Source: Nitrosopumilaceae archaeon
GTDB lineage: Archaea; Thermoproteota; Nitrososphaeria; Nitrososphaerales; Nitrosopumilaceae
Assembly: GCA_052389415.1 (NCBI GenBank)
Contig: JBQTHX010000077.1
Span: 1-33,122 of the forward strand
Reading direction: 5' to 3'
Length of the DNA stretch: 33,122 nt
Part shown: piece after piece, positions 16,879 to 26,907 of the stretch
Position numbering within the stretch: the stretch's first letter is position 1
Layout: every line of letters begins with the position of its first letter
Translations under genes and position numbers: made by a program
Notes under the pieces: model-generated
The model's database searches: none
What the model saw: the letters and a program-made list of their open reading frames with translations, nothing else
Told to the model about the DNA's origin: nothing

Positions 16879-17297
16879 GATTTTAAAAGTTCCATATAAT
16901 TCTTGGAAAGATCACTTTTTTTATACACTGGTATGGTAATCTTAATTTTCATGGCATCATTTTGTTGAATGTTAACAATTTTTCTTATAATGTCCTGCTT
17001 GCTGATTCGTAAAAACAACGAAGATTCCTCAAAATGCATGTTGAGATTGTTAAAAAAGTCATTCAATTGAACTTTTGAAATTTTTGAAATAGTTTTACGA
17101 AGAAACTCTTGTGCAATGTTATTTGTTAATTTTGTTTTCAGCAATAAAATTGGATTCCCAAAATGGCCTGCTAGTTTTTCTTCGGTAAACGCATCTTCAC
17201 TTATCTTAAACATTTCCAATATGGAATCTAGGATCTTTTTTCTATCCTCCGTTGCATGAATTATTATTTCAATAGCAGTTTCAAGTCGATTGGCCAT
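16875..17297 (-). CDS. Archaeal RNA-binding protein (DUF54/RL5-like)
   Basis: IIHATEDxxK, GHFGNPI, LFLRISKQ. Confidence 0.85.
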   Translation of the reverse strand: MANRLETAIEIIIHATEDRKKILDSILEMFKISEDAFTEEKLAGHFGNPILLLKTKLTNNIAQEFLRKTISKISKVQLNDFFNNLNMHFEESSLFLRISKQDIIRKIVNIQQNDAMKIKITIPVYKKSDLSKNYMELLKS

Positions 17298-17328
17298 GTT
17301 TTAGATTCTTTACTAAACAATAAATCTA

Positions 17329-17943
17329 TTAGGCTTGTAATAATGCGATCTCAGCTTCAGCGGTTCTGATTATCTTTGCTTTTTCAATGCCTATGTGTCT
17401 CACATGGATTATCTTCTTGACAGCTGCCATTATGTCTGAATTTATCTTTCCAAATGCTGTGGCTTGAACAAATTGCTCTATCGTCATCTCCGGAATTGAT
17501 TTTGACATTACATCTCGTGCTACTAATCTTAGTGCATGTTTGCGTGACGTGTTAAGCTTCTTTTGGGTAAGTGCAATAATTTTAATCCTAAAGATATACC
17601 CATCTTTTGTCTTGTAGTCTCCTATAAAATTAATTAACGATGAACCACGTCGAACAAGACTCCTCAAAAACTCTTTTGCATATTCATATCTCTTGAAAAT
17701 GGTTGTTGCAGTTTCACCTTCAACCTTGTTTATCTGAAAATATAGCTTGTATTGATGTTGAGAAGGATCTCCTTTTATGATATCAAATAACGTAACTTCA
17801 ATTACTCGACCTAATGCGCTTGCATCATCAGTAATTGGAATGTAACCTACTGGAACATTGTTAAAAGCTGAAGGAGCAAGTACAGTTACCCATTTTTTCT
17901 CTCGCCACTTGTCCTTTATTCTTGCAGTTTTTTGACGCGCCAA
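17329..17943 (-). CDS. rps3ae: 30S ribosomal protein S3Ae (eS1)
   Basis: KDKWREKKW, GRVIEVTL, LRSLVRRGSS, TKDGY. Confidence 0.96.
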   Translation of the reverse strand: MARQKTARIKDKWREKKWVTVLAPSAFNNVPVGYIPITDDASALGRVIEVTLFDIIKGDPSQHQYKLYFQINKVEGETATTIFKRYEYAKEFLRSLVRRGSSLINFIGDYKTKDGYIFRIKIIALTQKKLNTSRKHALRLVARDVMSKSIPEMTIEQFVQATAFGKINSDIMAAVKKIIHVRHIGIEKAKIIRTAEAEIALLQA

Positions 17944-17963
17944 CTATGATTGACGTTTAAAGC

Positions 17964-17976
17964 CAAAATATAAGTT
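17964..17976. repeat. Left att core
   Basis: CAAAATATAAGTT, 6 nt before the integrase ATG. Confidence 0.85.
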
Positions 17977-17982
17977 ATTAAC

Positions 17983-19203
17983 ATGGAAAGCAAAGAAAAT
18001 AGTTCTCTTAGGCATATAGGGCATAGAAAATTTGTGTCCGAATCTCCTCGAAGTTTAAGGCTCTTTGAACAGGCAATCAAGTCGCCTATAACTTACAAGA
18101 CATACAAAACGAACCTATGTATGTTTTTTGGATGGGCTAAAAAAGATCACGACTCTATTTTGGAAATGTCATCAAGTGAACTGCAGGAAGTACTTGAAGA
18201 GTATCTGTTTCATTTGAAAAAAAGATTGAGTCCAAATTCTATAGGTCCACATCTTGCTGCAATTGACAAGTTTCTTGCTGTAAATGATGTCGAATATAAA
18301 AAGCGTAAATTGCGGATGTTCCTGCCTGAAAAAGTAAAGTGCAGCGGAATCAAGGCATGGACTACACAGCACATACAAAGAATGCTAGAATATGCTGATA
18401 CTAGGAGAACCAAGGCTCTGATTCATTTTCTGTCTGCATCTGGAGTTAGGGTTGGCGCTCTTGAGGATTTGAGATGGAAAAATATTGAAGAAATGCCTAA
18501 TGGATGCTATTGTGTAACAATCTACGAAAAATCCAATCACGAATACATTACATTCCTTCACCATGAGGCTAGACAGACTCTTGATGACTATACAAATGGA
18601 AGAAGCAAATCGGGTGAAACCATAAATGGAGAATCGTTTGTTTTTCCTTCTAGGAACCGCATTAAGGACAAATCCAAACCACTAACAAGAAAAGGTATCG
18701 AGAGTTCGATTCTAAGGGTATTGAAAAGAGCGGGAATAGAAAGAACCAGAGAAAATAGGTTCAGGTTTGATATTGCAATTGATACAGGTTTTAGAAAGAG
18801 GTTTAACACCATTTTAAAAAGCAATCCTGGCATTTCCTACGCCATAGCAGAAAGGATGATGGATCATAAGACATACATGGAAACTCATTATCTTGATACT
18901 ACAAACAAGGACAAGTTTTTCGAGGAATACAAAAAAGCCATCCCAGATCTAATAATAGACGATTCTGAGAGGCTCAGAGCACAAAATCAGAAACTTGAGG
19001 CTGAAAAGGCAGAACTTGAAAAAAAGAGCCAGGAAGTTGAGGTGCTAAAGCGGAGACAAGAGGAAATCATGATGGAACTTGAAAAGATAAAGAAACGACA
19101 AGAAAGATCTGAAAAATATGGTAAAAGGACTATTGGCGATCCATTAAACTATAAAAACTTTGACAATTCGGACATATGTCCGAATTTGACAACTCGGAAA
19201 TAA
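17983..19203 (+). CDS. Tyrosine recombinase/integrase with C-terminal coiled coil
   Basis: SGVRVGAL (R), YEKS (K), TGFRKRF (HxxR with H replaced by T), MMDH, THY (Y); alternative in-frame GTG start at 18034. Confidence 0.92.
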   Translation: MESKENSSLRHIGHRKFVSESPRSLRLFEQAIKSPITYKTYKTNLCMFFGWAKKDHDSILEMSSSELQEVLEEYLFHLKKRLSPNSIGPHLAAIDKFLAVNDVEYKKRKLRMFLPEKVKCSGIKAWTTQHIQRMLEYADTRRTKALIHFLSASGVRVGALEDLRWKNIEEMPNGCYCVTIYEKSNHEYITFLHHEARQTLDDYTNGRSKSGETINGESFVFPSRNRIKDKSKPLTRKGIESSILRVLKRAGIERTRENRFRFDIAIDTGFRKRFNTILKSNPGISYAIAERMMDHKTYMETHYLDTTNKDKFFEEYKKAIPDLIIDDSERLRAQNQKLEAEKAELEKKSQEVEVLKRRQEEIMMELEKIKKRQERSEKYGKRTIGDPLNYKNFDNSDICPNLTTRK

Positions 19204-19814
19204 TCACGAAATATTTCGGAGTTGAAGAAAGGAGCAAAATGTTTTCAATCTGATATTTAACTATGGTGAATTGCGACATATGTCGCAATTGCAGAATGAG
19301 ATGCTAAAGAATGCCAGAATCTTTTTAATGTATTATTTAAAGATGATGAAATGCGCAACGTTGCGCATTTAATAGACGAGGATTTGGAAGATGCAAAAAG
19401 AATGCAGACATTTACAATCTATTATTTAAGAATGCCGAAATTAGCAATGTTGATGATTTCATAAAGCAAGATCTAGAAGAGGTCAAAAATTATGAGGACT
19501 TGATTAACCTCGCTGAGAACCTAAACGATGACCGAGAAAAGATTTGTGTCCTCTAAAAAAACTGAGAATTTTAAGGTGGAACTATTTAACTCTAGCGAAA
19601 TCGGTACTACTACCGAATTAGAGGATGACTTTGTCAATCAAGGAAAAGACTGGCTGGATGAGATAGAACTCGCTGAAACATTTTTGAATAGAAGAAAGGA
19701 ACGAAATCCTTTCAATCTGCTATTTAACTATGGTGAAATCAGGACTATTCCAGTTTTGCAAAACCTTATCAATCTAATATATAAAGAAGATGAAATCACA
19801 AAAGTTTGCGAATT
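19150..19814 (+). repeat. Array of seven TATA-like box + 22-bp palindrome units
   Basis: Palindromes at 19165, 19269, 19349 (perfect) and 19438, 19598, 19736, 19793 (8-9 of 11 pairs), each 8 nt after TATTTAA/TATATAA/TATAAAA. Confidence 0.9.
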
Positions 19815-19860
19815 GATAAATGAGATGTTTGCAGATGCCTACAATTATTACAATAACTGA
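19528..19860 (+). CDS. Hypothetical 110-aa acidic protein containing array units 5-7 in frame
   Basis: Repeated LF/Y-x3-EI motif (ELFNSSEI, NLLFNYGEI, NLIYKEDEI). Confidence 0.5.
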   Translation: MTEKRFVSSKKTENFKVELFNSSEIGTTTELEDDFVNQGKDWLDEIELAETFLNRRKERNPFNLLFNYGEIRTIPVLQNLINLIYKEDEITKVCELINEMFADAYNYYNN

Positions 19861-19916
19861 GTAATAAACACTGGAAAATAGTTCTCTTAACCTAGTTAAA
19901 TTATTCAACTAACGAG

Positions 19917-20057
19917 ATGTCATCAACTACCTTGAAGCATATTGTTGTGTCTGAGGAAAACTTCAACAAACTTAAGAATCTTGGTAAAGCAGGAGATTCC
20001 TTTAATGATGTCATTTCTAAAGTTTTGAAGAAACTTGAGGGATTAAATCAGAAATGA
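19917..20057 (+). CDS. 46-aa ribbon-helix-helix/antitoxin-like DNA-binding protein (absent from ORF track)
   Basis: MSSTTLKHIVVSEENFNKLKNLGKAGDSFNDVISKVLKKLEGLNQK; typical archaeal RHH pattern I.VS....L......SFNDVI..L. Confidence 0.8.
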   Translation: MSSTTLKHIVVSEENFNKLKNLGKAGDSFNDVISKVLKKLEGLNQK

Positions 20058-20221
20058 ATTCATCCATGACTACTTTTGCGTGTAGATGTACTGCTCCAAA
20101 AAAACATCGGCTTATCTTGGATGGAGGATCTACTGGTTTCTACTGCTTGGATCTCTGTCCATCTTGTTATGAAAAAGAGGAAAAGAAGTTCCTGATTTCA
20201 GAAGAAGAGTTGGTAAACTAA
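20054..20221 (+). CDS. 55-aa cysteine-rich putative Zn-binding protein (absent from ORF track)
   Basis: MNSSMTTFACRCTAPKKHRLILDGGSTGFYCLDLCPSCYEKEEKKFLISEEELVN; ATGA overlap with the RHH gene. Confidence 0.65.
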   Translation: MNSSMTTFACRCTAPKKHRLILDGGSTGFYCLDLCPSCYEKEEKKFLISEEELVN

Positions 20222-20228
20222 ATGATGG

Positions 20229-20348
20229 ATTCTACTCTACTTTACTTTTTACAGAATATTATCTTCCTATCAAGTTACCTCTTTACTTACTTTCTTTTAA
20301 AATTATTTTTTATTATAACAATTAGTAAAAAGTGGAGTAGAGTAGAAT
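20229..20348. repeat. 24-bp inverted repeat around an AT-rich spacer (candidate origin or operator)
   Basis: ATTCTACTCTACTTTACTTTTTAC (20229-20252) vs GTAAAAAGTGGAGTAGAGTAGAAT (20325-20348), 22 of 24 complementary. Confidence 0.8.
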
Positions 20349-20604
20349 GAAAAGAAGCATGTCAAAGGCTTTAGATAAGATATATCGACTCGTTAAGGAA
20401 AAGAAAATAGTTGATATCGTAACTTTTTGCGATTTACTAAATCTGTCGCCATCAACCTTCTATAACTATCGTAGGTTTGTTACTACTAGATATGAAAACA
20501 TAATCTATGAAAATGGATGTTTGAAATGGCTTGAGTCTGAGGCTCTTGAAACAGGAAATAATACTGAATCAAAAAATGCAGTAAAACTGCAAGAAGAGGC
20601 ATAA
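20347..20604 (+). CDS. HTH/winged-helix DNA-binding protein
   Basis: IVTFCDLLNLSPSTFYNYRR helix-turn-helix signature followed by a beta hairpin. Confidence 0.7.
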   Translation: MKRSMSKALDKIYRLVKEKKIVDIVTFCDLLNLSPSTFYNYRRFVTTRYENIIYENGCLKWLESEALETGNNTESKNAVKLQEEA

Positions 20605-20704
20605 ATAATGAGAACAAAAAATAAACATCATCTTATTGCAAAATTGAAAAAGCCTAATTTGTGCCTAGGAATGAGACAATGGAATCCCTTTTTGGAGCAT
20701 AACT

Positions 20705-20947
20705 ATGCCAACTAGTTGGAAAAATCGTTCTACATATGGAAAATTACTTCGCAGGATAATTATAAAACAAGCAGAGAGATTTGAAAAAACTACCAATGAT
20801 GAAGACGCCGTTAAAATTTCTATGAACATAGGATATCTTGTCGATAAACTAAACAATTTGTTAAAACAAGAAGAATCAAAATTAGTAGAAAGAATCGAAC
20901 AACTTGAAGAGATCTCAGGCATCACAAAAAAAGGTAATAATAATTGA
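20705..20947 (+). CDS. Hypothetical helical/coiled-coil protein
   Basis: 80 aa, LVERIEQLEE coiled coil, overlaps the next ORF. Confidence 0.6.
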   Translation: MPTSWKNRSTYGKLLRRIIIKQAERFEKTTNDEDAVKISMNIGYLVDKLNNLLKQEESKLVERIEQLEEISGITKKGNNN

Positions 20948-21369
20948 ATCTAGAGGAAAGAATTTCCAACATTAGATTTCAACACGAGGAAGATGAATCC
21001 ATTTCTGAAGAGTTAGTAAAAGAAATAATCAGAAAATTGATTTTTGAGCACTCTCTCAGGTTAATACCTGATATTCTTACCTATTGTATCATCAAACACA
21101 CCAAGTGTGATTATCATCATGCCTTGGCAATAAAGAAAAAAATGTCTGATCTTGGGATGGATGTTTGCATGGAATTCGATTATTATTCAATAGAAAAATT
21201 CGCAGAAATGCGTGATTACGTCACCGGGGAGGAATTAGAAAAAGTGTATAAGGAAATCGATGATGAAGAGAAGAAACAGAAAGAAATAGAACGATATTTT
21301 GAAGAAAAATATGGCGAAAACTGGTCAGATGAAGTTTGGGATGAATATCATGCAGCCGGCGGAATATGA
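20944..21369 (+). CDS. Hypothetical acidic protein
   Basis: 141-aa ORF in an operon-like arrangement. Confidence 0.6.
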   Translation: MNLEERISNIRFQHEEDESISEELVKEIIRKLIFEHSLRLIPDILTYCIIKHTKCDYHHALAIKKKMSDLGMDVCMEFDYYSIEKFAEMRDYVTGEELEKVYKEIDDEEKKQKEIERYFEEKYGENWSDEVWDEYHAAGGI

Positions 21370-21631
21370 TGTAGACCAAGAACTTGAATTAGATTCACAG
21401 TATACCAGCATGCCTAAAAAGTGCAAAAGTCAGCCACAATTTAATTTTGCACACCTGTCACCCTCTGTAATTCCAAATTTCGATAGGGGATCCTTCAAAA
21501 AAAGTGTACAGTTTAATTTGAAAATTTATATGCATGAGATCTACTATCTACGCATGATGCTTGACTCTTGCTGTGAATGCTGGGTAAGGCTGGCAAAAGC
21601 TTATAAATAGTCTTATGTTAGCATAAGTAGA

Positions 21632-22285
21632 ATGACATTATCGCTAGACGTTCGTAAAGGACACACCATGAGTATGGCTGTACCAAAGGATGACATAGAA
21701 ATTACAAATTTCAGAAATTATGTCTTGAAGATAGAAGGTCAGGAATTAACATCAAGAAACAGTCAGGACAAAAAACTTATGCTAAAAGTAGGAAGGGATG
21801 GAGTACTTTACCTGGAACTGATTGGCTCCGGCAAAAAACCAGTTGAAGATTTTTCTATGATATATGCCTCTGTACCAAACGGTTATACGAAATATCATAA
21901 AACTGAGGCTGCAAAAACCATCAGAGGAGTAAAGGGAAAATATCTTTATTTCAAAAATGGAGAGGATGATTTTATTGGATTTGCTGTTGGTCCTAGTGGC
22001 AAGGCGTATAAAATTGCTTTAGGAAAACTAACTGATAAAGAATCAAAATTAAGAACTGTCCTGGACAATCTTCCAGATAAACCATTTATCAAGGCATACT
22101 TCAATGACAAACTTCCATTCCATATCGTAGAAAATCGTCAACCAATCAAGGCAGCGTTAGACATCCTTGAAAAACTAGGCTACGTGAAAAAAACAGGAAA
22201 TGCTATTGGAATTTCAGAAGAATATTTCAAAACATCAAAAGTACCGCCAAAAGCGACATCTCAAATGAAACTAGCGAGAGGATAA
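21632..22285 (+). CDS. Hypothetical basic protein, possible C-terminal winged helix
   Basis: 217 aa, Lys-rich; 'KAALDILEKLGYVKK' resembles a wHTH recognition helix and wing. Confidence 0.65.
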   Translation: MTLSLDVRKGHTMSMAVPKDDIEITNFRNYVLKIEGQELTSRNSQDKKLMLKVGRDGVLYLELIGSGKKPVEDFSMIYASVPNGYTKYHKTEAAKTIRGVKGKYLYFKNGEDDFIGFAVGPSGKAYKIALGKLTDKESKLRTVLDNLPDKPFIKAYFNDKLPFHIVENRQPIKAALDILEKLGYVKKTGNAIGISEEYFKTSKVPPKATSQMKLARG

Positions 22286-22377
22286 GTAGTAACAAGAAAG
22301 GAAAGCGGATGAGAGTATGACCGTGGAGCAGGCGCTGCTCGCAATCATCATGCTAATCCCTTGTAATTACTACTTAT
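22282..22377. other. Long multi-stem hairpin between convergent genes
   Basis: ATAAGTAGTAA/TTACTACTTAT, CAAG/CTTG, GGAT/ATCC, AGTATGA/TCATGCT and GAGCAG/CTGCTC nested pairings. Confidence 0.6.
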
Positions 22378-22419
22378 ATCCTCATTCATTGTTTATTTGT
22401 CTTTTCTTGTTAAGAATAC

Positions 22420-23349
22420 TCACTTATAGTCGGCAATTTTTTTATCACTCCAAGTAGGAATTTTTTTCCATCTTGGAATTTCATTATCCTCATCAAATTC
22501 TAAAGTGAGAGACTCGTGTCTGATATTAAGTGGCTCTTTTAATCGCTTTTTTGCAAGGAGCACATACTTTTGTTGAATATCAATACCAATGAATTTTCTT
22601 CCTAGGTGTTTGGCCAGTTTTGTGGTTTGTCCACTACCATTGAAAGGATCCAACACAACATCACCAGGATATGAATACAAGTTAATTAATCGATATGGAA
22701 TTTCTTCTGGATACGGACATGGATGGTCTAGATATCCTGGTGGCACTGGTGCAATATGCCAGACAGAATTTGCAATTTCGTTATAGAGTTTTACGTTTAG
22801 ATTTTTGAAAGCGTAACCCATATCTCTTCTAAGTTTATTTCCTCCTTTTCTAAAGACAAGAATTTTTTCATGCATGATGTTTGCACGGAAATATGATGGA
22901 TAGGGATGTTGTACAAAACTTCCTGCTCTATTAGCACCACCAGTGACTTTGTGCCACACTATTTCTTCATGCAAGTTCCAACCATCTTCTACTAATTCTC
23001 TAGTTAACAACGCTGGTAGAGGTATCAATGTTCCATGATTGATTTCATTTGCAACAACTATACAACAAAAACCACCTTCAACTGTGATTCGTCTCACTTC
23101 ATTGAAAGTTCTTCTCATATCTTTTAGATATTCTTCAACTCCAATCTCTAACTTACCACGATAATTCTTTTTTGGATTGTTGCCATGTTTAACATGCATA
23201 TCATAATCTATGGCATTTCGATAATGTGGAGAAGTAATAGTCAGATTTACTGAATTATCTGGTATCTTTGACATTGCCCTGATGTTGTCAGACTTTATGA
23301 TTTGATTGCGAAGTCTGCTTGCCAAACTAGCAATCACTTTTGGATCCAT
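22420..23349 (-). CDS. Beta-class N4-cytosine/N6-adenine DNA methyltransferase
   Basis: Motif IV TSPHY near the N-terminus, IVWHK, HPCPYP, motif I VLDPFNGSGQT, GRKFIGID. Confidence 0.92.
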   Translation of the reverse strand: MDPKVIASLASRLRNQIIKSDNIRAMSKIPDNSVNLTITSPHYRNAIDYDMHVKHGNNPKKNYRGKLEIGVEEYLKDMRRTFNEVRRITVEGGFCCIVVANEINHGTLIPLPALLTRELVEDGWNLHEEIVWHKVTGGANRAGSFVQHPYPSYFRANIMHEKILVFRKGGNKLRRDMGYAFKNLNVKLYNEIANSVWHIAPVPPGYLDHPCPYPEEIPYRLINLYSYPGDVVLDPFNGSGQTTKLAKHLGRKFIGIDIQQKYVLLAKKRLKEPLNIRHESLTLEFDEDNEIPRWKKIPTWSDKKIADYK

Positions 23350-23440
23350 GCATTTAACTCTTGCTTGTTAAATTAAAAAATAATATTGAGCAATGGATAA
23401 ATGAAATATGAAAATTCAAAGAGGTTGATACGAAGACTTC

Positions 23441-24358
23441 TCAAACAGTAATGGCGCCACAGGATAGGTTTCCCCTTATTTTGCTTACTCTTATCCAGAT
23501 AAAACCATCAAAATCATTTAACACCACCTGATGATTCCTCACTAGTACATCTGTTCTCGGATCATTAACTATAGCAGATGTATTCTTCAAATCATCAACA
23601 ATGGCCTCAGGAAAATCCTTTAATTCTTTAATTAATTTCGTACTTACAAAAAATTCAAAATTCAGATAATGTGGCTCAGCCGGGTCATCATCAAGATGAA
23701 TAACTGGAAATCTAGAATTATCTCGAGCGTCTTTTATTATTTTGTATCTCCTTTGCAAATCCGGTAAATTTGCTCCACTAAAACGTATTTCTTGTGTTTT
23801 AGGCATAAGTTCTAACCTGCTTGTAGATTCTACTCCAAAAGTAAACCATCTAAATAATGAATTATTAATTTTTCTTGTATTTCTCTTACCATATTTTATT
23901 CCTTGGGTATCTTTTTCTGCTAAGGTGATATGCCATATTCTCCAATTTTCTTCTAGAGAATAATGATCAGAATTGAGGAGAATTCCATTTTCAAGTGGAT
24001 TGCTACCATCGGGTGCAATTGTAACTCTTCTATCAACTAAACCAGGAAAGAAAATGAGACGCTTTCCTGTATATGCAAAAGAACCCAAAACAAAAAATTC
24101 GTTTCTTTCTTTATAGAAGACATAAGCGATTTTTCCAATAGGTTTTCCATCCCGAATTATCTTTCTTAGAGGTCGTACTAATGCAGAATCTTCTGAAATA
24201 CTATCTCCGCTGCCAACTGGAAAACAATAGTATATGGGCATGTTTGGTCTGCCATTTTCATCAATTAGAGGATCAAGAGGCAAGAAGTATGCCTTGCCTA
24301 ATTCTCCACATTCGATTTCATGTGCAGTGGAACCGTCATTGATTATGTTGTTCTTCAT
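23441..24358 (-). CDS. Hypothetical protein (element cargo)
   Basis: 305-aa ORF, no recognised motif. Confidence 0.7.
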   Translation of the reverse strand: MKNNIINDGSTAHEIECGELGKAYFLPLDPLIDENGRPNMPIYYCFPVGSGDSISEDSALVRPLRKIIRDGKPIGKIAYVFYKERNEFFVLGSFAYTGKRLIFFPGLVDRRVTIAPDGSNPLENGILLNSDHYSLEENWRIWHITLAEKDTQGIKYGKRNTRKINNSLFRWFTFGVESTSRLELMPKTQEIRFSGANLPDLQRRYKIIKDARDNSRFPVIHLDDDPAEPHYLNFEFFVSTKLIKELKDFPEAIVDDLKNTSAIVNDPRTDVLVRNHQVVLNDFDGFIWIRVSKIRGNLSCGAITV

Positions 24359-24473
24359 TTGGGTCGTTTCTTACCTCTAGAGTTTCAGACCAATGATATA
24401 AAAACAGAAAGGAGGCAAAACTGAGGTAACAAAATAGATTAGAGCGAGTAAATGATAATTTCACTGATTCCAA

Positions 24474-25577
24474 ATGGGTTTAATTAAAGAAAATATGTAC
24501 ACCGTTGCTTCTGCGACTACTGACTTATCTGTGAATGAGGCATTTATGATTTGTAAGGATGTTTGCGAAAAAATTAAAGAAGCAAAAGTCAATGAGATAG
24601 ATGAAAACAAATTTTTGATAAAGGGAAAGTCAAAACCTAGCATACATTCGTTTGTTGGTCATAAATTTATTTTAGTAGTAACTAAGACAGAAAATGGTAG
24701 TAACATTCTGGTTTATTACAATTATTTGGGTCTTGGTGCAGGGCCAACCCCAGCGAGAGCGGACTTCATCGATCCATTATTCAATGAACTTGGTAAGAGA
24801 GTACAACTGAAGGGAATACAAACGGCGACGCAATTAATTCATGATTATTTCTTTGATAACTTGACTGGTCAAATAAAAATGGACGAAATAGATCAAAAAT
24901 TTCATTGCACAATATGTGGTAAAAATGCAGCATTCGTACAATTCCAGAAGGTTACTATATGCAATTCTTGTTTTGAAGAAAAATTTGGATCAGTGCGTTT
25001 GCGTGTAACGGGTGCTGAATATCATGGGGGTCATAAGGCATATCTAGCAGGAGGATATTTCAGTAAATTTCAATTGGGTACAATATACCTGACTGACAAC
25101 TATCTCATATTCTCAAAAGGTGACAAAGAATCCTCTCAACGCTGGGAAATAATAATCCCGTTAAGTTCGATCGTCATAGAAAAATGGGGGATAGAAGAGG
25201 AATCAAGACGAAAAGATATTTCTGGTGGTGCCGTGGCTTTAGGGGACAGTGGTGTAGCAATAGGAGGAGGAACTATACATGATTCTGGAAAAGCGCATCA
25301 TGTTGTTGTTCCATATATTGATGAGAACGGTATACCTCAAGAACCCAGGTTTGGAGCATCGTCTCTTGGTGGAAAAGTTATTCGAGAACTTTCTGCAAAG
25401 TTATACGAATTGATTGTAAAATCTAAGAAAAATAATATTCAGAATGTTAACATTAAACAACAAACTGACACACCCAAAACAAAAGAAGATGATCCTATGT
25501 TGGTTCTAAAGATGAGACTGGTTAAAGGTGAGATTACTAAGGAAGAATTTGAAGACCTAAAAAAGATGCTAGAATGA
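24474..25577 (+). CDS. Multidomain protein: Zn ribbon, PH/GRAM-like domain and C-terminal SHOCT
   Basis: CTICGK...ICNSC; YHGGH...GTIYLTDNYLIF...IIIPLSSI; DDPMLVLKMRLVKGEITKEEFEDLKKML. Confidence 0.75.
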   Translation: MGLIKENMYTVASATTDLSVNEAFMICKDVCEKIKEAKVNEIDENKFLIKGKSKPSIHSFVGHKFILVVTKTENGSNILVYYNYLGLGAGPTPARADFIDPLFNELGKRVQLKGIQTATQLIHDYFFDNLTGQIKMDEIDQKFHCTICGKNAAFVQFQKVTICNSCFEEKFGSVRLRVTGAEYHGGHKAYLAGGYFSKFQLGTIYLTDNYLIFSKGDKESSQRWEIIIPLSSIVIEKWGIEEESRRKDISGGAVALGDSGVAIGGGTIHDSGKAHHVVVPYIDENGIPQEPRFGASSLGGKVIRELSAKLYELIVKSKKNNIQNVNIKQQTDTPKTKEDDPMLVLKMRLVKGEITKEEFEDLKKMLE

Positions 25578-25622
25578 TGCATTTAGGAACAAATTAAAAA
25601 ATTATGGAATGTTTTTAAGGTA

Positions 25623-25635
25623 CAAAATATAAGTT
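25623..25635. repeat. Right att core
   Basis: CAAAATATAAGTT, 9 nt from the serS stop codon. Confidence 0.85.
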
Positions 25636-25644
25636 GTACGACTT

Positions 25645-26907
25645 TTAGATACTCGATTTTCCAACATATTTTTGCAAAATTTTTGGAATTTCGACATGTC
25701 CATCTTTTGTCTGAAAGTTTTCAAGTATTGAGACCAGAGTTCTAGATGTTGCAACAAGCGTGCTGTTTAATGTATGAAGATATTGAGGTTGATCATTTGT
25801 TCTGTCACGAAATCTAATCTTTAGTCTTCTGGCCTGGAAATCAAGACAATTAGAACATGATACAATCTCACGATAGTTATTCTGCCCAGCCATCCATGCC
25901 TCTAAATCAAAAGTCTTTGCAGAAATTTTTCCAAGATCCCCACTTGACAAAACCGTTATCCTGTATGGGATCTCCAGCTTTTGATAAAATTCTTCTACAA
26001 TGGCTAGCATTTTTTCATGCTCTTTCCAAGATTCTTCTGGTCTTGAAAAAATAAATTGTTCAACCTTTTCAAATTGGTGAACACGAAAAATTCCCTTCTG
26101 ATCTCTTCCATGTGCACCAGCTTCTTTTCTAAAACAAGGACTAACGCCTGCATATCTAATTGGCAAATTCTTTCCTTCCAAAATTTCATCAGAGTGCATC
26201 GATGCCACTGCATGCTCCGATGTTCCGATAAGATATAGATCGTCACCTTCAACTTTGTAAATTACATCCTCAAAATCATTTGCAATGATTGCCCCCTCCA
26301 TTGAATTCCGATTTATCATATAAGGTGTTTGAATAGGAGTATAATTTTTTTCAGAAAGAAAATCTAGGGCATAGTGTATTAAAGCTTGATTTAGTTTTAC
26401 AAGATCATTTTTTAGATAATAAAATCTGGCACCAGCCACTTTCGCAGCTCTTTCCAAATCAATAAGATCAAGATTCTGCGAAATGTCTATGTGGTCTTTT
26501 ATTTTAAAATCAAATTGAGGTATTTTCCCCCATCTTTTTAATTCCATGTTAGCAGTTTCATCTTTTCCAATTGGAACTGATTCATGAATGAGATTAGGCA
26601 GCGTAAGTGAGAGTTGAGCATACTCTGATTCTGTCTTAGTTTGAAGGATTTCTAATCCTGAAAGTCTTTCAGAAACTTGTCTCATCTGTTCTATGAGAAA
26701 TGTTGCATCTTGATCCAATTTTTTTTTCTGTGCAATTTCTAAGGAGATCTCATTTTTTTTCTTGCGTAAGTCATCTGTTTTGATAATCAACTCTCTTCGT
26801 TCCTTGTCTAATTTTATCAAATCATCAAGTGGAAAATCAACATCTCTGTCTTTGAGCATTTTTTTTATTGTTTCAGGATTTTCTCGAATAATCTTTGGAT
26901 CAAGCAT
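25645..26907 (-). CDS. serS: Serine--tRNA ligase
   Basis: MLDPKIIRENP, GTSEH, motif 2 FRKEAG...GIFRVHQFEKVEQF, EIVSCSNC, HTLNST. Confidence 0.97.
   Translation of the reverse strand: MLDPKIIRENPETIKKMLKDRDVDFPLDDLIKLDKERRELIIKTDDLRKKKNEISLEIAQKKKLDQDATFLIEQMRQVSERLSGLEILQTKTESEYAQLSLTLPNLIHESVPIGKDETANMELKRWGKIPQFDFKIKDHIDISQNLDLIDLERAAKVAGARFYYLKNDLVKLNQALIHYALDFLSEKNYTPIQTPYMINRNSMEGAIIANDFEDVIYKVEGDDLYLIGTSEHAVASMHSDEILEGKNLPIRYAGVSPCFRKEAGAHGRDQKGIFRVHQFEKVEQFIFSRPEESWKEHEKMLAIVEEFYQKLEIPYRITVLSSGDLGKISAKTFDLEAWMAGQNNYREIVSCSNCLDFQARRLKIRFRDRTNDQPQYLHTLNSTLVATSRTLVSILENFQTKDGHVEIPKILQKYVGKSSI

Follow-up and report, generated by a model that had tools for sequence, protein, structure and literature searches.

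The window, that is, the whole stretch of 33,122 nucleotides analysed here, contains an integrated element of 7.6 kb (17977-25622), and the repeat region that concerns us lies inside it. The two ends of this element carry an exact 13-nt direct repeat (attL core, 17964-17976; attR core, 25623-25635), and the element is absent from nine of nine same-genus genomes, in which the alignment passes from 17976 straight to 25623, with the 13 nt in common. With an empty site in relatives, att repeats and an integrase gene inside, it is a cryptic integrated element (CIE) of the tyrosine-recombinase type, of the class known from Thaumarchaeota. Its target is intergenic, with the gene for ribosomal protein S3Ae on one side and that for seryl-tRNA synthetase on the other, and its host is a small-genome archaeon, whose genome of 1.43 Mb is assembled in 94 contigs.

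The gene of the tyrosine integrase (17983-19203, + strand, 406 aa; Pfam Phage_integrase, E = 3.5e-14, with an N-terminal SAM-like domain) occupies the left edge of the element, and the repeat array follows it directly. The first conserved gene past the array codes for a 46-aa ribbon-helix-helix (RHH)-like protein (19917-20057, + strand; Pfam VAPB_antitox, E = 1.9e-5, below the gathering score); this protein, a zinc-ribbon protein (55 aa) and a helix-turn-helix (HTH) protein (85 aa) are encoded just downstream of the array. The element also encodes a DNA methylase, and most of its genes are of unknown function. Searches of Pfam, PHROGs and NCBIfam recognise no replication or partition gene in the element. 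A 217-aa ORF of the element has no relative among the genome contigs searched, and the integrase has none in IMG/VR; the 85-aa HTH protein matches two IMG/VR contigs, which have that gene alone in common with the element. The remaining genes of the window are intact, with ORFs of up to 594 aa.

Two relatives of the integrase, 79% identical (in the related element L200) and 71% identical (in genome G001), come from loci that lack the array. L200 is integrated at the same site and aligns to 17354-19118 and 19874-20673 of the window at 76-77% identity, the second block (L200 3715-4518, 76%) resuming at 19874, just upstream of the RHH-like gene. Between the two blocks, L200 holds 78 nt in place of the 755 nt of the window (19119-19873), which indicates that the array and the ORF that ends it form a dispensable, gene-sized, lineage-specific accessory segment.

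The array consists of six units, U2 to U7, which start at 19242, 19322, 19411, 19571, 19709 and 19766, all on the + strand, and align without gaps; the spacings given for them earlier (80, 89, 160, 138 and 57 nt) are exact. The last three lie in one ORF of 110 aa that begins with ATG (19528-19860), and the first three, U2 (19242-19319), U3 (19322-19399) and U4 (19411-19488), are read in frames 2, 1 and 0, respectively. The sequence-only reading of this DNA, made before our analysis, had described the flanks of U2 and U6 (19224-19270 and 19691-19737) as matching at 42/47 nt without gaps around inner cores (19273-19286 and 19740-19753) that match at 5/14 nt, and had quoted one peptide for each unit; the two counts, the ORF and the translations, each in a single register, are reproduced exactly. 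With a longer flank, the identity of U2 and U6 is 51/61 in the flank and 10/22 in the core (Fisher p = 0.0013). U2 and U6 are the sole pair with such similar flanks, the other pairs being 42-65% identical throughout. When U4, U5, U6 or U7 is left out of the profile and the whole genome is searched with nhmmer, the omitted unit is the best match outside the profile (E = 0.0084 for U4, 0.012 for U5, 4.8e-6 for U6 and 0.0072 for U7), and the repeats exceed what chance would give. Among the columns of the unit, variation is least in a TATWWAA motif and in the outer AA.T of a dyad. The candidate U1, in the 3' end of the integrase gene, is not a true unit: it shares the palindrome only, and its E value is 46 when it is left out of the profile.

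The peptides of the units open with hydrophobic residues around a conserved asparagine (FNLIF, FNVLF, YNLLF, INLIY), and a conserved glutamate follows a few residues later. The 110-aa protein (pI 4.6) is an orphan. It finds itself alone among 5.8 billion clustered proteins, and again itself alone in a HMMER scan of 1.84 billion representative proteins; it has no homologue in 60 related genomes and no family in Pfam, PHROGs or NCBIfam. The U4 segment matches none of the longer proteins searched. The best score in the ESM Atlas (0.86, recognition 1706) is not usable, and the AlphaFold2 model computed from the single 110-aa sequence (pLDDT 42) is uninformative. At the DNA level, the unit motif has one match with one mismatch in 400 other genomes of the family, as expected by chance. 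It matches 117 stretches of metagenome contigs and 32 in IMG/VR; in 149 of the motif-matched stretches, examined as loci with blastn and nhmmer, the similarity consists of the motif alone or of 25-85 nt at the motif site, and none has an array. One group of prophage contigs is similar to the array for about 48 nt, within a gene that looks like one of the repressor type.

Several kinds of repeats and RNA genes can be set aside. The units are homologous over their whole length and their periods are irregular, contrary to a CRISPR-like mini-array, and the order of the boxes, judged by eye, is wrong for a C/D-box sRNA. No tRNA is found, and the Rfam covariance models have no match in 17000-26000; elsewhere they give one snoRNA match at chance level (E = 0.15).

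Each core is a dyad. Two of the perfect palindromes, of 22 nt, are the cores of U2 (P2, 19269-19290; hairpin of -8.5 kcal/mol, z = -4.0) and U3 (P3, 19349-19370; -9.6 kcal/mol, z = -4.2), and the third, P1 (19165-19186), which had been taken as the core of U1, would form a DNA hairpin of -8.6 kcal/mol (z = -4.4; 0 of 200 shuffles are as good). The dyad of U4 is degenerate and its hairpin is not significant (z = -0.28); inside the 110-aa ORF, the hairpin of U5 has a z of -3.3 and those of U6 and U7 are not significant. The genome (1.43 Mb) contains seven perfect palindromes with arms of at least 11 nt and no loop, and three of them fall within 206 nt here. Their perfect symmetry extends across the centre, more than a hairpin would require. 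Other inverted repeats in the region are either these palindromes within units or weak pairs.

The dyad is found at a fixed place in 7/7 units, its core centred on a codon boundary. In the 9-bp stem, 90.2% of the 61 cells are paired (19-45% in controls where the dyad is slid along the units), and six of the nine pairs have changed on both sides. In none of 500 shuffles is the observed value attained for paired cells, for doubly changed cells or for the score of covariation; the measures that count pairs or types are reached by 10 and 1 of the 500. The earlier description of the cores as divergent is accurate as far as it goes; the cores of all units are, moreover, dyad-symmetric, and their changes come in compensated pairs. 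P1 and P2, for instance, differ by a swap of CG and GC that is mirrored in both arms.

The last 15 or so codons of the integrase traverse P1, which belongs to a 26-nt tandem duplication of the 3' end of the gene (19159-19210, + strand; 19159-19184 and 19185-19210 match at 20/26). The first copy is the one that contains the perfect palindrome, and the second retains the ancestral context of the stop codon; all six differences, as read by eye, make the first copy identical to P2 at those positions. Partly by eye also, P1 appears as a mosaic of the integrase end and P2, and U2 as a flank like that of U6 joined to a core like P1. These mosaics are footprints of past small-scale exchange between units, that is, of concerted evolution, and are not evidence of a working diversification system. 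In 19 other integrase loci of the family (about 64 kb; one of them, L030, from the unpublished genome G122), two single palindromes are seen and no cluster. The half-sites of P1, P2 and P3 are found nowhere else in the element, and the spacings between successive dyads (104, 80, 89, 160, 138 and 57 nt) keep no helical phase.

The out-of-frame units have the marks of coding sequence. Over U2-U7, the differences come to 0.49 at the first codon position, 0.29 at the second and 0.51 at the third (permutation p = 0.00125), and in the out-of-frame U2-U4 alone they amount to 36/72, 11/72 and 38/70, the second position being conserved. Among U5-U7, there is no codon periodicity (27/56, 26/56 and 27/55). 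The codon-usage log-odds are positive solely in each segment's own register, in which they resemble those of the 3' end of the integrase gene and the neighbouring RHH gene. The + strand of 19226-19857 is tiled by three open stretches (0 of 3000 dinucleotide shuffles need three or fewer, the minimum being 5), and the reverse strand needs 11. U2-U4 contain no stop codon in their registers. The registers, the codon usage, the periodicity, the tiling and the absence of the segment from L200 point to a gene that once occupied 19239-19860 on the + strand and had about 205 codons. It would have encoded an acidic repeat protein, an orphan, and have run from the ATG at 19239, preceded by GGAG, to the stop codon at 19858-19860. 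Its successive parts are now in frames 0, 2, 1, 0 and 1, and four one-base frame changes can be placed at about 19243, 19318, 19395 and 19540; the passages from U2 to U3 and from U3 to U4 each need a -1 shift, and that from U4 to U5 a +1 shift. The coding signature continues across the frame breaks, as it does in pseudogenes; the homologue searches found no intact orthologue or paralogue with an undisrupted frame.

It could be argued that errors of sequencing or assembly produced the frame breaks and that the gene is intact in the cells. Each change is at or near a homopolymer, as judged by eye (TTTT at 19242-19245, TTTTT at 19322-19326, AAAAA around 19393, AAAA around 19537), the assembly consists of 94 contigs, and the contigs of one of the two runs that we compared break at 19520-19542. 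Against this, the contigs assembled independently from these two runs (X1 and X2) cover 18800-20200 fully and are identical to the window there, with no other letter and no gap; the runs belong to one study and may come from the source sample, and contigs do not reveal minority variants. Nothing matching was found in a third run, X3. That the contigs reach 88 kb at a depth of about 15 implies accurate reads, no other long gene is broken in the 33-kb window, and four errors within 300 nt with none elsewhere are implausible. Since the independent contigs of two runs reproduce them, we consider that the frame breaks are real in the DNA; that they are errors, which the sequence-only reading had listed among the outcomes that would undo its proposal, is highly improbable.

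The sequence-only reading had put forward that the units are silent variant cassettes, which recombination, as in a shufflon, or gene conversion could move into an expressed ORF. On this view U2-U4 would be the silent copies, the 110-aa ORF the recipient and the adjacent integrase the possible recombinase. A tyrosine recombinase gene does adjoin the array, the flanks of U2 and U6 match around a divergent core, the mosaic units U2 and P1 testify, as read by eye, to past exchange of short tracts, and the 22-nt palindrome can be read, again by eye, as 8-bp inverted arms around a 6-bp spacer, which is the layout of a recombinase core site. However, the integrase has its own sites, the 13-nt att repeats at the ends of the element, which do not resemble the palindromes. 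The units are all direct and on one strand, with no invertible segment and no matching ORF on the opposite strand, unlike a shufflon of the Rci/sfx type, and the out-of-frame copies are not preceded by a constant, expressed 5' part. Only one pair of units has alike flanks, and the longest identical run between a supposedly silent and the supposedly expressed copy, read off the two strings, is 17 nt (U2 and U6), so that a silent-cassette conversion locus is not a fitting description either. The contigs of the two runs show a single arrangement, without joints, variants or alternative orders, although rare forms would be missed there. Neither a relative, a recognisable function nor any detectable evidence of a promoter is found for the 110-aa ORF, L200 has neither this ORF nor the cassettes, and the coding periodicity is strongest precisely among the copies that should be silent. 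Taken together, these observations make mobile cassettes exceedingly improbable.

Other recombination-based systems were also considered. No reverse-transcriptase family was detected among the ORFs of the element that were scanned (11 with Pfam and NCBIfam, 9 of them also with PHROGs; these do not include the short ORFs at 20222-20350 and 20608-20715, the overlapping ORF at 21299-21610, or the rest of the window), which speaks against a diversity-generating retroelement. The attC sites of integrons are imperfect hairpins with R and L boxes and extrahelical bases, located between cassettes and beside an integrase of the IntI type. Here no ORFs separate the units, which are spaced at 57-160 nt, three of the palindromes are perfect and free of bulges, and the integrase scores 59 bits against the XerA/integron-integrase model, for which the cut-off is 220.

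A different possibility is that the gene is alive and translated by way of programmed -1 ribosomal frameshifts at the TTTAAx motifs, stimulated by the hairpins, or as several short, possibly leaderless ORFs that start from the ATG at the centre of the palindromes. A programmed -1 frameshift signal is made of a slippery heptamer of the form X XXY YYZ, a spacer of 5-9 nt and a stem. U3 has a heptamer T TTA AAG (19336-19342) in the frame of U2, a spacer of 6 nt, a perfect stem of 9-11 bp, and the 0-frame stop codon (19370-19372) inside that stem; U2 to U3 and U3 to U4 both want the -1 direction, U2-U4 are free of stops in their registers, and U6 and U7, where no shift is needed, have the weakest hairpins. 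As for the short ORFs, the CATATG centres lie, by eye, about 23 nt past TATA-like motifs. On the contrary, the site of U4 (T TTA AGA) is followed by an insignificant hairpin, the junction of U4 and U5 wants +1, and upstream of 19271 the register of U2 lacks a start codon; the ORF opened by the ATG at 19239 has 4 codons and ends before the motif of U2. Three serial shifts would give very little product, the motif and the hairpin are simply the architecture of the unit, which recurs where no shift is needed, and there are no homologues in which the signal could be seen to be conserved. Expression by serial frameshifting or from short ORFs thus strikes us as very improbable.

More weight must be given to the proposal that the dyads are functional cis-acting sites within a present or former coding sequence, and that their symmetry is kept by selection. 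A dimeric protein of the element could bind them (the RHH, zinc-ribbon or HTH protein, or the integrase), or they could act as hairpins or cruciforms in replication, partition or regulation. In favour of this, the dyad covaries at a fixed position in every unit, with a share of paired cells that no shuffle reaches; three of the seven perfect palindromes of that size in the genome are gathered here, their perfect centres suit a dimer bound to double-stranded DNA, the invariant columns are the TATWWAA motif and the outer part of the dyad, the array lies between the integrase and small genes of the DNA-binding type, and P1 has been installed in the tail of the integrase, outside the former gene. 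On the other side, the inner half-sites vary from unit to unit, which leaves little for one protein to read, and the perfect ones are unique within the element; the spacings lack a helical phase, L200 is devoid of the whole array and the 19 other integrase loci of any palindrome cluster, no replication or partition gene is recognised, and four of the seven dyads have no significant hairpin (U4, U6 and U7) or a modest one (U5). An iteron-type origin or centromere array is rejected on similar grounds: the cores differ, the spacings are irregular, no cognate gene is recognised and L200 has no array. We regard cis-acting dyads as unlikely on balance, but as a reading to be taken seriously.

A more elaborate version, to which we give a slightly smaller chance, holds that a selected palindrome, forming a hairpin or binding a dimer, sits 9 nt past a TTTAAx or TATA-like motif, in register with the reading frame, so that the array would be at the same time a protein repeat and a set of cis-acting modules, and its cores would diversify by mirrored double changes alone. 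The boldest variant has the hairpins drive serial -1 frameshifts, as U3 suggests, or act as sites for the neighbouring recombinase. If this were true, the selected dual-use array would be a kind of coding and structural repeat not described so far in archaeal mobile elements, and functional dyads would provide a compact model of a sequence that doubles as coding repeat and cis-acting site on such an element.

The explanation that we favour, with somewhat better than even confidence, is that 19239-19860 is the remnant of one accessory gene of the cryptic element, broken in its frame, and that its palindromes are the product of mutation. The gene would once have been intact and now be dead, its palindromes being mutational rather than selected. 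Its product would have been an acidic protein of about 205 residues made of six diverged copies of a unit of 19-50 residues, which was probably all-helical, and the 110-aa ORF is probably the surviving 3' part. According to this scenario, four one-base changes in the first half of the gene would have left U2, U3 and U4 in three frames, and only the 3' 110 codons would persist as an ORF. The dyads would have been made, and kept symmetric, by a mutational process in which replication switches template inside quasi-palindromes and adjacent units exchange short tracts by conversion, so that changes in one arm become mirrored changes in two. Such a process would explain the three perfect palindromes, the greater divergence of the cores relative to the flanks, and the writing of P1 into the duplicated 3' end of the integrase gene. 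Single events of template switching are reported to yield perfect stems and multibase compensatory changes (PMC8794818), and template switching is also reported to homogenise the arms of inverted repeats in coding sequence (PMC8604942). The alternative offered by the sequence-only reading, a decayed repeat-protein gene with targeted hypervariability, is therefore half retained: the periodicity in three shifted registers, the open frames and the reality of the breaks speak for decay, and what was called hypervariability is rather a change of core sequence under which the palindrome is preserved.

Some observations sit less comfortably with a dying gene and mutational palindromes. The intact ancestor is deduced from the remnant, with no intact homologue to show its continuity. 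For ordinary decay, four indels without any in-register stop over about 115 codons is a rather high share of indels. The constant position of the dyad and its strong covariation are features that one would usually ascribe to selection, acting on a structure or on a binding site, and U3 looks like a textbook -1 frameshift signal, with exactly the right frames. U5-U7, in the surviving ORF, lack codon periodicity, and the pLDDT of the 110-aa model is 42.

Since the locus is single and has no relatives, its biological weight is small. Yet if the favoured explanation holds, strong covariation (90% pairing, six of nine pairs compensated) can arise in DNA that is probably free of structural selection, in a gene that seems to be dying. 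This bears on the use of covariation as a proof of functional RNA or DNA structure, and on the claim that template switching makes and maintains perfect stems. Independently of the array, the analysis defines a small integrated element, its attachment core of 13 nt and its target, a new intergenic one that the S3Ae and seryl-tRNA synthetase genes flank.

The array can be compared with several systems in which repeats have a function. Like the R64 shufflon, it has a tyrosine recombinase gene beside related coding segments with short conserved repeats; in the shufflon, however, the sfx sites are inverted, both strands carry segments and a constant 5' part is joined to alternative 3' ends, none of which is seen here. 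The silent copies of pilE/pilS and vlsE are also promoterless, out of frame or truncated, and placed upstream, with conserved flanks and variable cores. Here the copies are of about 80 nt, a single pair has alike flanks and the supposed expression site is an orphan ORF; the coding constraint is strongest in the silent copies, and variants are absent from the contigs of two runs. U3 resembles a programmed -1 frameshift signal in its heptamer, its 6-nt spacer, its perfect stem of -9.6 kcal/mol and the early 0-frame stop, whereas the other junctions fail: one of them needs +1, and a start codon is missing from the first segment.

In the lambda origin, the dyad-symmetric iterons lie within gene O. 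The likeness resides in tandem units with a dyad core, in register with the reading frame, which result in a peptide repeat. The iterons of lambda share one binding sequence and lie beside an A+T-rich region in a recognisable initiator gene, whereas here the cores differ, no initiator is recognisable and L200 does without the array.

Regarding the element itself, the CIEs of Thaumarchaeota were surveyed by Krupovic et al. 2019 (PMC6563490), who report 15 intergenic elements out of 68 and sizes of 2.6-98 kb. The element described here is likewise small, at the lower end of that range, bears an integrase and a methylase, is bounded by direct repeats, intergenic and missing from close relatives. 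It differs by its internal array of repeats and palindromes, which is unmentioned in the available text of the survey, where "palindrom" occurs only in the reference list.

The closest parallel, that of quasi-palindrome correction, is with perfect inverted repeats, simultaneous mirrored changes and homogenised arms in coding sequence, as reported in three articles (PMC8794818, PMC8604942 and PMC5941160); the formation of a perfect palindrome from an imperfect one, as P1 compared to its 26-nt sister copy, is a further point of resemblance. What sets the present locus apart is that the same position has been hit in six or seven paralogous units, and that the resulting covariation is as strong as that of a selected RNA stem.

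The repeat units are carried by an integrated element. In 9/9 same-genus genomes that have the gene of ribosomal protein S3Ae, the insertion is absent and the alignment jumps from 17976 to 25623, with 13 nt in common; together with the 13-nt direct repeats found at the element ends (17964-17976 and 25623-25635), this identifies 17977-25622 as a 7.6-kb integrated element. It lies between the genes of S3Ae and seryl-tRNA synthetase, near which a geranylgeranyl reductase-type protein is also encoded; these neighbours mark the host as an archaeon. A tyrosine integrase gene (17983-19203) begins 7 nt in from the left end of the element, which otherwise holds a DNA methylase gene, small ORFs of DNA-binding type and genes of unknown function. 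Such an insertion agrees with the "cryptic integrated elements" described in Thaumarchaeota, of which 15/68 have intergenic targets (PMC6563490). In sequencing run X1, a 7706-nt contig spans 17947-25652, that is, the element and 30 nt on each side; these limits imply that the assembly graph branches at both element junctions, and that another form of the junction (empty site or circle) coexists in that sample. On the minus strand, at 22420-24358, the gene of an N6/N4 DNA methylase (Pfam E 3.8e-37) adjoins a 305-aa ORF without family match, and the two may form an element-borne restriction-modification pair. Also on the minus strand, 23602-23687 resembles an Rfam model of a C/D-box snoRNA so weakly (27 bits, where the gathering score is 60; E 0.15) that the match is most likely due to chance.

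When one genome of each species was scanned, the closest integrase had 79% identity across residues 1-391; its gene is on L200, a contig titled Candidatus Nitrosotenuis sp. MAG, and also adjoins the S3Ae gene. The presence of a related element at the S3Ae site in another species shows that this site is a recurrent target of the element family. According to blastn, L200 1871-3636 corresponds to 17354-19118 of the window (76.7%) and L200 3715-4518 to 19874-20673 (76.3%), and the two aligned blocks are separated by 78 nt in L200 versus 755 nt in the window. The ribbon-helix-helix-like (RHH) gene just after the array, the zinc-ribbon gene and the HTH gene are about 76% identical in DNA in the two elements, and the L200 contig stops 833 nt past the integrase. 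The last two codons and the stop are identical in both integrase ORFs, so the true difference extends, by eye, from about 19204/19213 to 19862. This extra segment is one gene-sized piece, running from the ATG at 19239, which follows a GGAG, to the stop at 19858-19860. There is no array downstream of the next closest integrase (71%, genome G001), and 19 other integrase loci of the family, one of them from the unpublished genome G122, contain just two isolated palindromes in about 64 kb. The HTH-like protein (85 aa, 20347-20604) has relatives, 72% and 56% identical, on two IMG/VR viral contigs of 33-45 kb (L201 and L202), which have nothing else in common with the element. Short pentamer-like direct repeats are seen by eye between the zinc-ribbon and HTH genes, at 20222-20350 and at about 4190-4330 of L200, where they are CTACT/AGTAG runs.

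Six repeat units, U2 to U7, start at 19242, 19322, 19411, 19571, 19709 and 19766; they align without gaps (alignment A1), and the spacings described in the sequence-only reading (80, 89, 160, 138 and 57 nt) were reproduced, as was every other detail of that description. U5-U7 are indeed part of an ATG ORF of 110 aa (19528-19860), and the peptides quoted for U2-U7 are the translation of each unit in its own register (three-frame translation of 19100-19900). When U4, U5, U6 or U7 is left out of an nhmmer profile run against the whole 1.43-Mb genome, the unit in question is recovered as the best non-member match (E 0.0084 for U4, 0.012 for U5, 4.8e-6 for U6 and 0.0072 for U7). The putative seventh unit, U1, located in the integrase 3' end, is not retrieved by such a profile (E = 46), and has only the palindrome in common with the family. 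The flanks of U2 and U6 (19224-19270 and 19691-19737) are identical at 42/47 positions, versus 5/14 in the inner 14 nt of the cores; with longer flanks the values are 51/61 for the flanks versus 10/22 for the cores (p = 0.0013).

Sequence statistics point to a coding history of the whole segment, including the out-of-frame units. In the peptide register, the pairwise differences between U2-U7 amount to 0.49 at the first codon position, 0.29 at the second and 0.51 at the third (column-label permutation p = 0.00125). The periodicity is strongest in U2-U4, outside the ORF (36/72, 11/72 and 38/70), and U5-U7 show none among themselves (27/56, 26/56 and 27/55). Since U2, U3 and U4 diverged in one register, they would once have been in one frame, with unit lengths of 81 and 90 nt that are now 80 and 89. 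Codon-usage log-odds, trained on 454 long ORFs of other contigs, are positive in no register but the own one of each segment, where the values in bits per codon are -0.09 for U2 (-1.2 and -1.5 off-frame), 0.46 for U3, 0.35 for U4 and 0.12 for the ORF. Such scores are of the order seen for the 3' end of the integrase gene (0.10) and for the RHH gene (0.03); the off-frame penalties come partly from stop codons. Three open stretches tile the + strand from 19226 to 19857, the reverse strand requires 11, and 3000 dinucleotide shuffles all required more than three, at least 5 and most often 12-13. The encoded pieces are acidic (pI 4.2-4.6), except that of U2.

Comparing the linkers by eye places frame changes at about 19318 (beside GCC/CAG), at about 19393-19397 (an A-run) and within 19525-19553; a fourth, also by eye, separates the ATG at 19239 (frame 0) from the U2 register (frame 2). 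That these breaks are sequencing errors is highly improbable: four errors within 300 nt are implausible while the other long genes of the window are intact, and independently built contigs from two runs reproduce 18800-20200 with 0 differing letters and 0 gaps, although both runs come from a single study and may themselves have supplied the assembly, and minority variants do not show in contigs. Regarding the interpretation proposed from the sequence, the coding history and the real frame breaks support a decayed repeat gene, whereas recombination cassettes of the shufflon type, whose defining features fail, can be given almost no credence.

The gene appears to be an orphan. The 110-aa ORF matches only itself among 5.8 billion clustered proteins and, using HMMER, among 1.84 billion representatives; the U4 segment has no match in longer proteins, and searches for a family model, an Atlas neighbour and a confident fold gave none. 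In 60 related genomes, only noise and the units of the window itself (E 1.3e-5 and 0.044) were retrieved. One chance match aside, 400 further genomes of the family lack the unit motif, and metagenome and viral contigs gave isolated matches only.

The palindromes noticed at the unit cores are real, and their signal is stronger than first described. P1 (19165-19186), P2 (19269-19290) and P3 (19349-19370), at the cores of U1, U2 and U3, are perfect 22-nt palindromes; they lie within 206 nt and make up 3/7 of the zero-loop perfect palindromes with arms of at least 11 nt in all 94 contigs. The genome's longest perfect palindrome by far (48 nt) is outside the window, at C67:36253-36300. In the 9-bp stem (A1 columns 38-46/51-59), 90.2% of 61 cells are paired and 6/9 pairs have changes on both sides. 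In a test with seven rows only, all paralogues, and a structure derived from the same sequences, none of 500 column shuffles reached the values observed for the share of paired cells, for cells with two-sided changes or for the covariation score, and two measures counting pairs or types were reached by 10 and 1 of them. Sliding the stem partners by 1-3 columns lowers pairing to 19-45%. Folded as single-stranded DNA, the cores of U1 (z -4.4), U2 (-4.0), U3 (-4.2) and U5 (-3.3) are significant, and those of U4, U6 and U7 are not. By eye, the dyad is centred between two codons of the unit register, so that the codons on either side are mutual reverse complements.

Such clean covariation, at the same position in each of seven units, is usually read as selection, but we consider a cis-acting role of the dyads unlikely, since the half-sites vary between units and are found nowhere else in the element, the unit spacings have no phase, and the nearest relative manages without the array. 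It is very unlikely that the array is read by -1 frameshifting: U3 does have a textbook signal in the correct frames, with T TTA AAG at 19336-19342 separated by a 6-nt spacer from a perfect stem, and with an early stop in the 0 frame; the site of U4, however, is degenerate, a +1 shift is needed from U4 to U5, and the U2 register has no start. As a singleton, the locus is an oddity, striking for its palindrome signature but of modest interest unless the dyads are functional.

Most simply, the segment is what remains of an orphan accessory gene that encoded a repeat protein; the lineage of this element would have acquired the gene or grown it, and indels of a single base would have inactivated it recently. 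This does not account for the dyads, for which three observations favour a mutational origin. The symmetry of P1-P3 is unbroken even at the centre, where a hairpin has no need of it. The integrase 3' end contains a 26-nt tandem duplication (19159-19210, 20/26) that lengthens the integrase tail and whose first copy is now P1; by eye, all six differences of this copy from the ancestral-type copy are identities with P2, whereas P1 and P2 differ by a mirrored CG/GC swap where P1 agrees with its sister copy, which makes P1 a mosaic. U2, too, is a mosaic, joining a flank like that of U6 to a core like P1. It may be that the ancestral unit had a quasi-palindromic core that was repeatedly "corrected" arm against arm, which would leave the cores more different than the flanks, yet symmetric. 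Single events of replication template switching are reported to produce perfect stems as well as compensatory changes of several bases (PMC8794818), and the process is also reported to homogenise the arms of inverted repeats inside coding sequence (PMC8604942).
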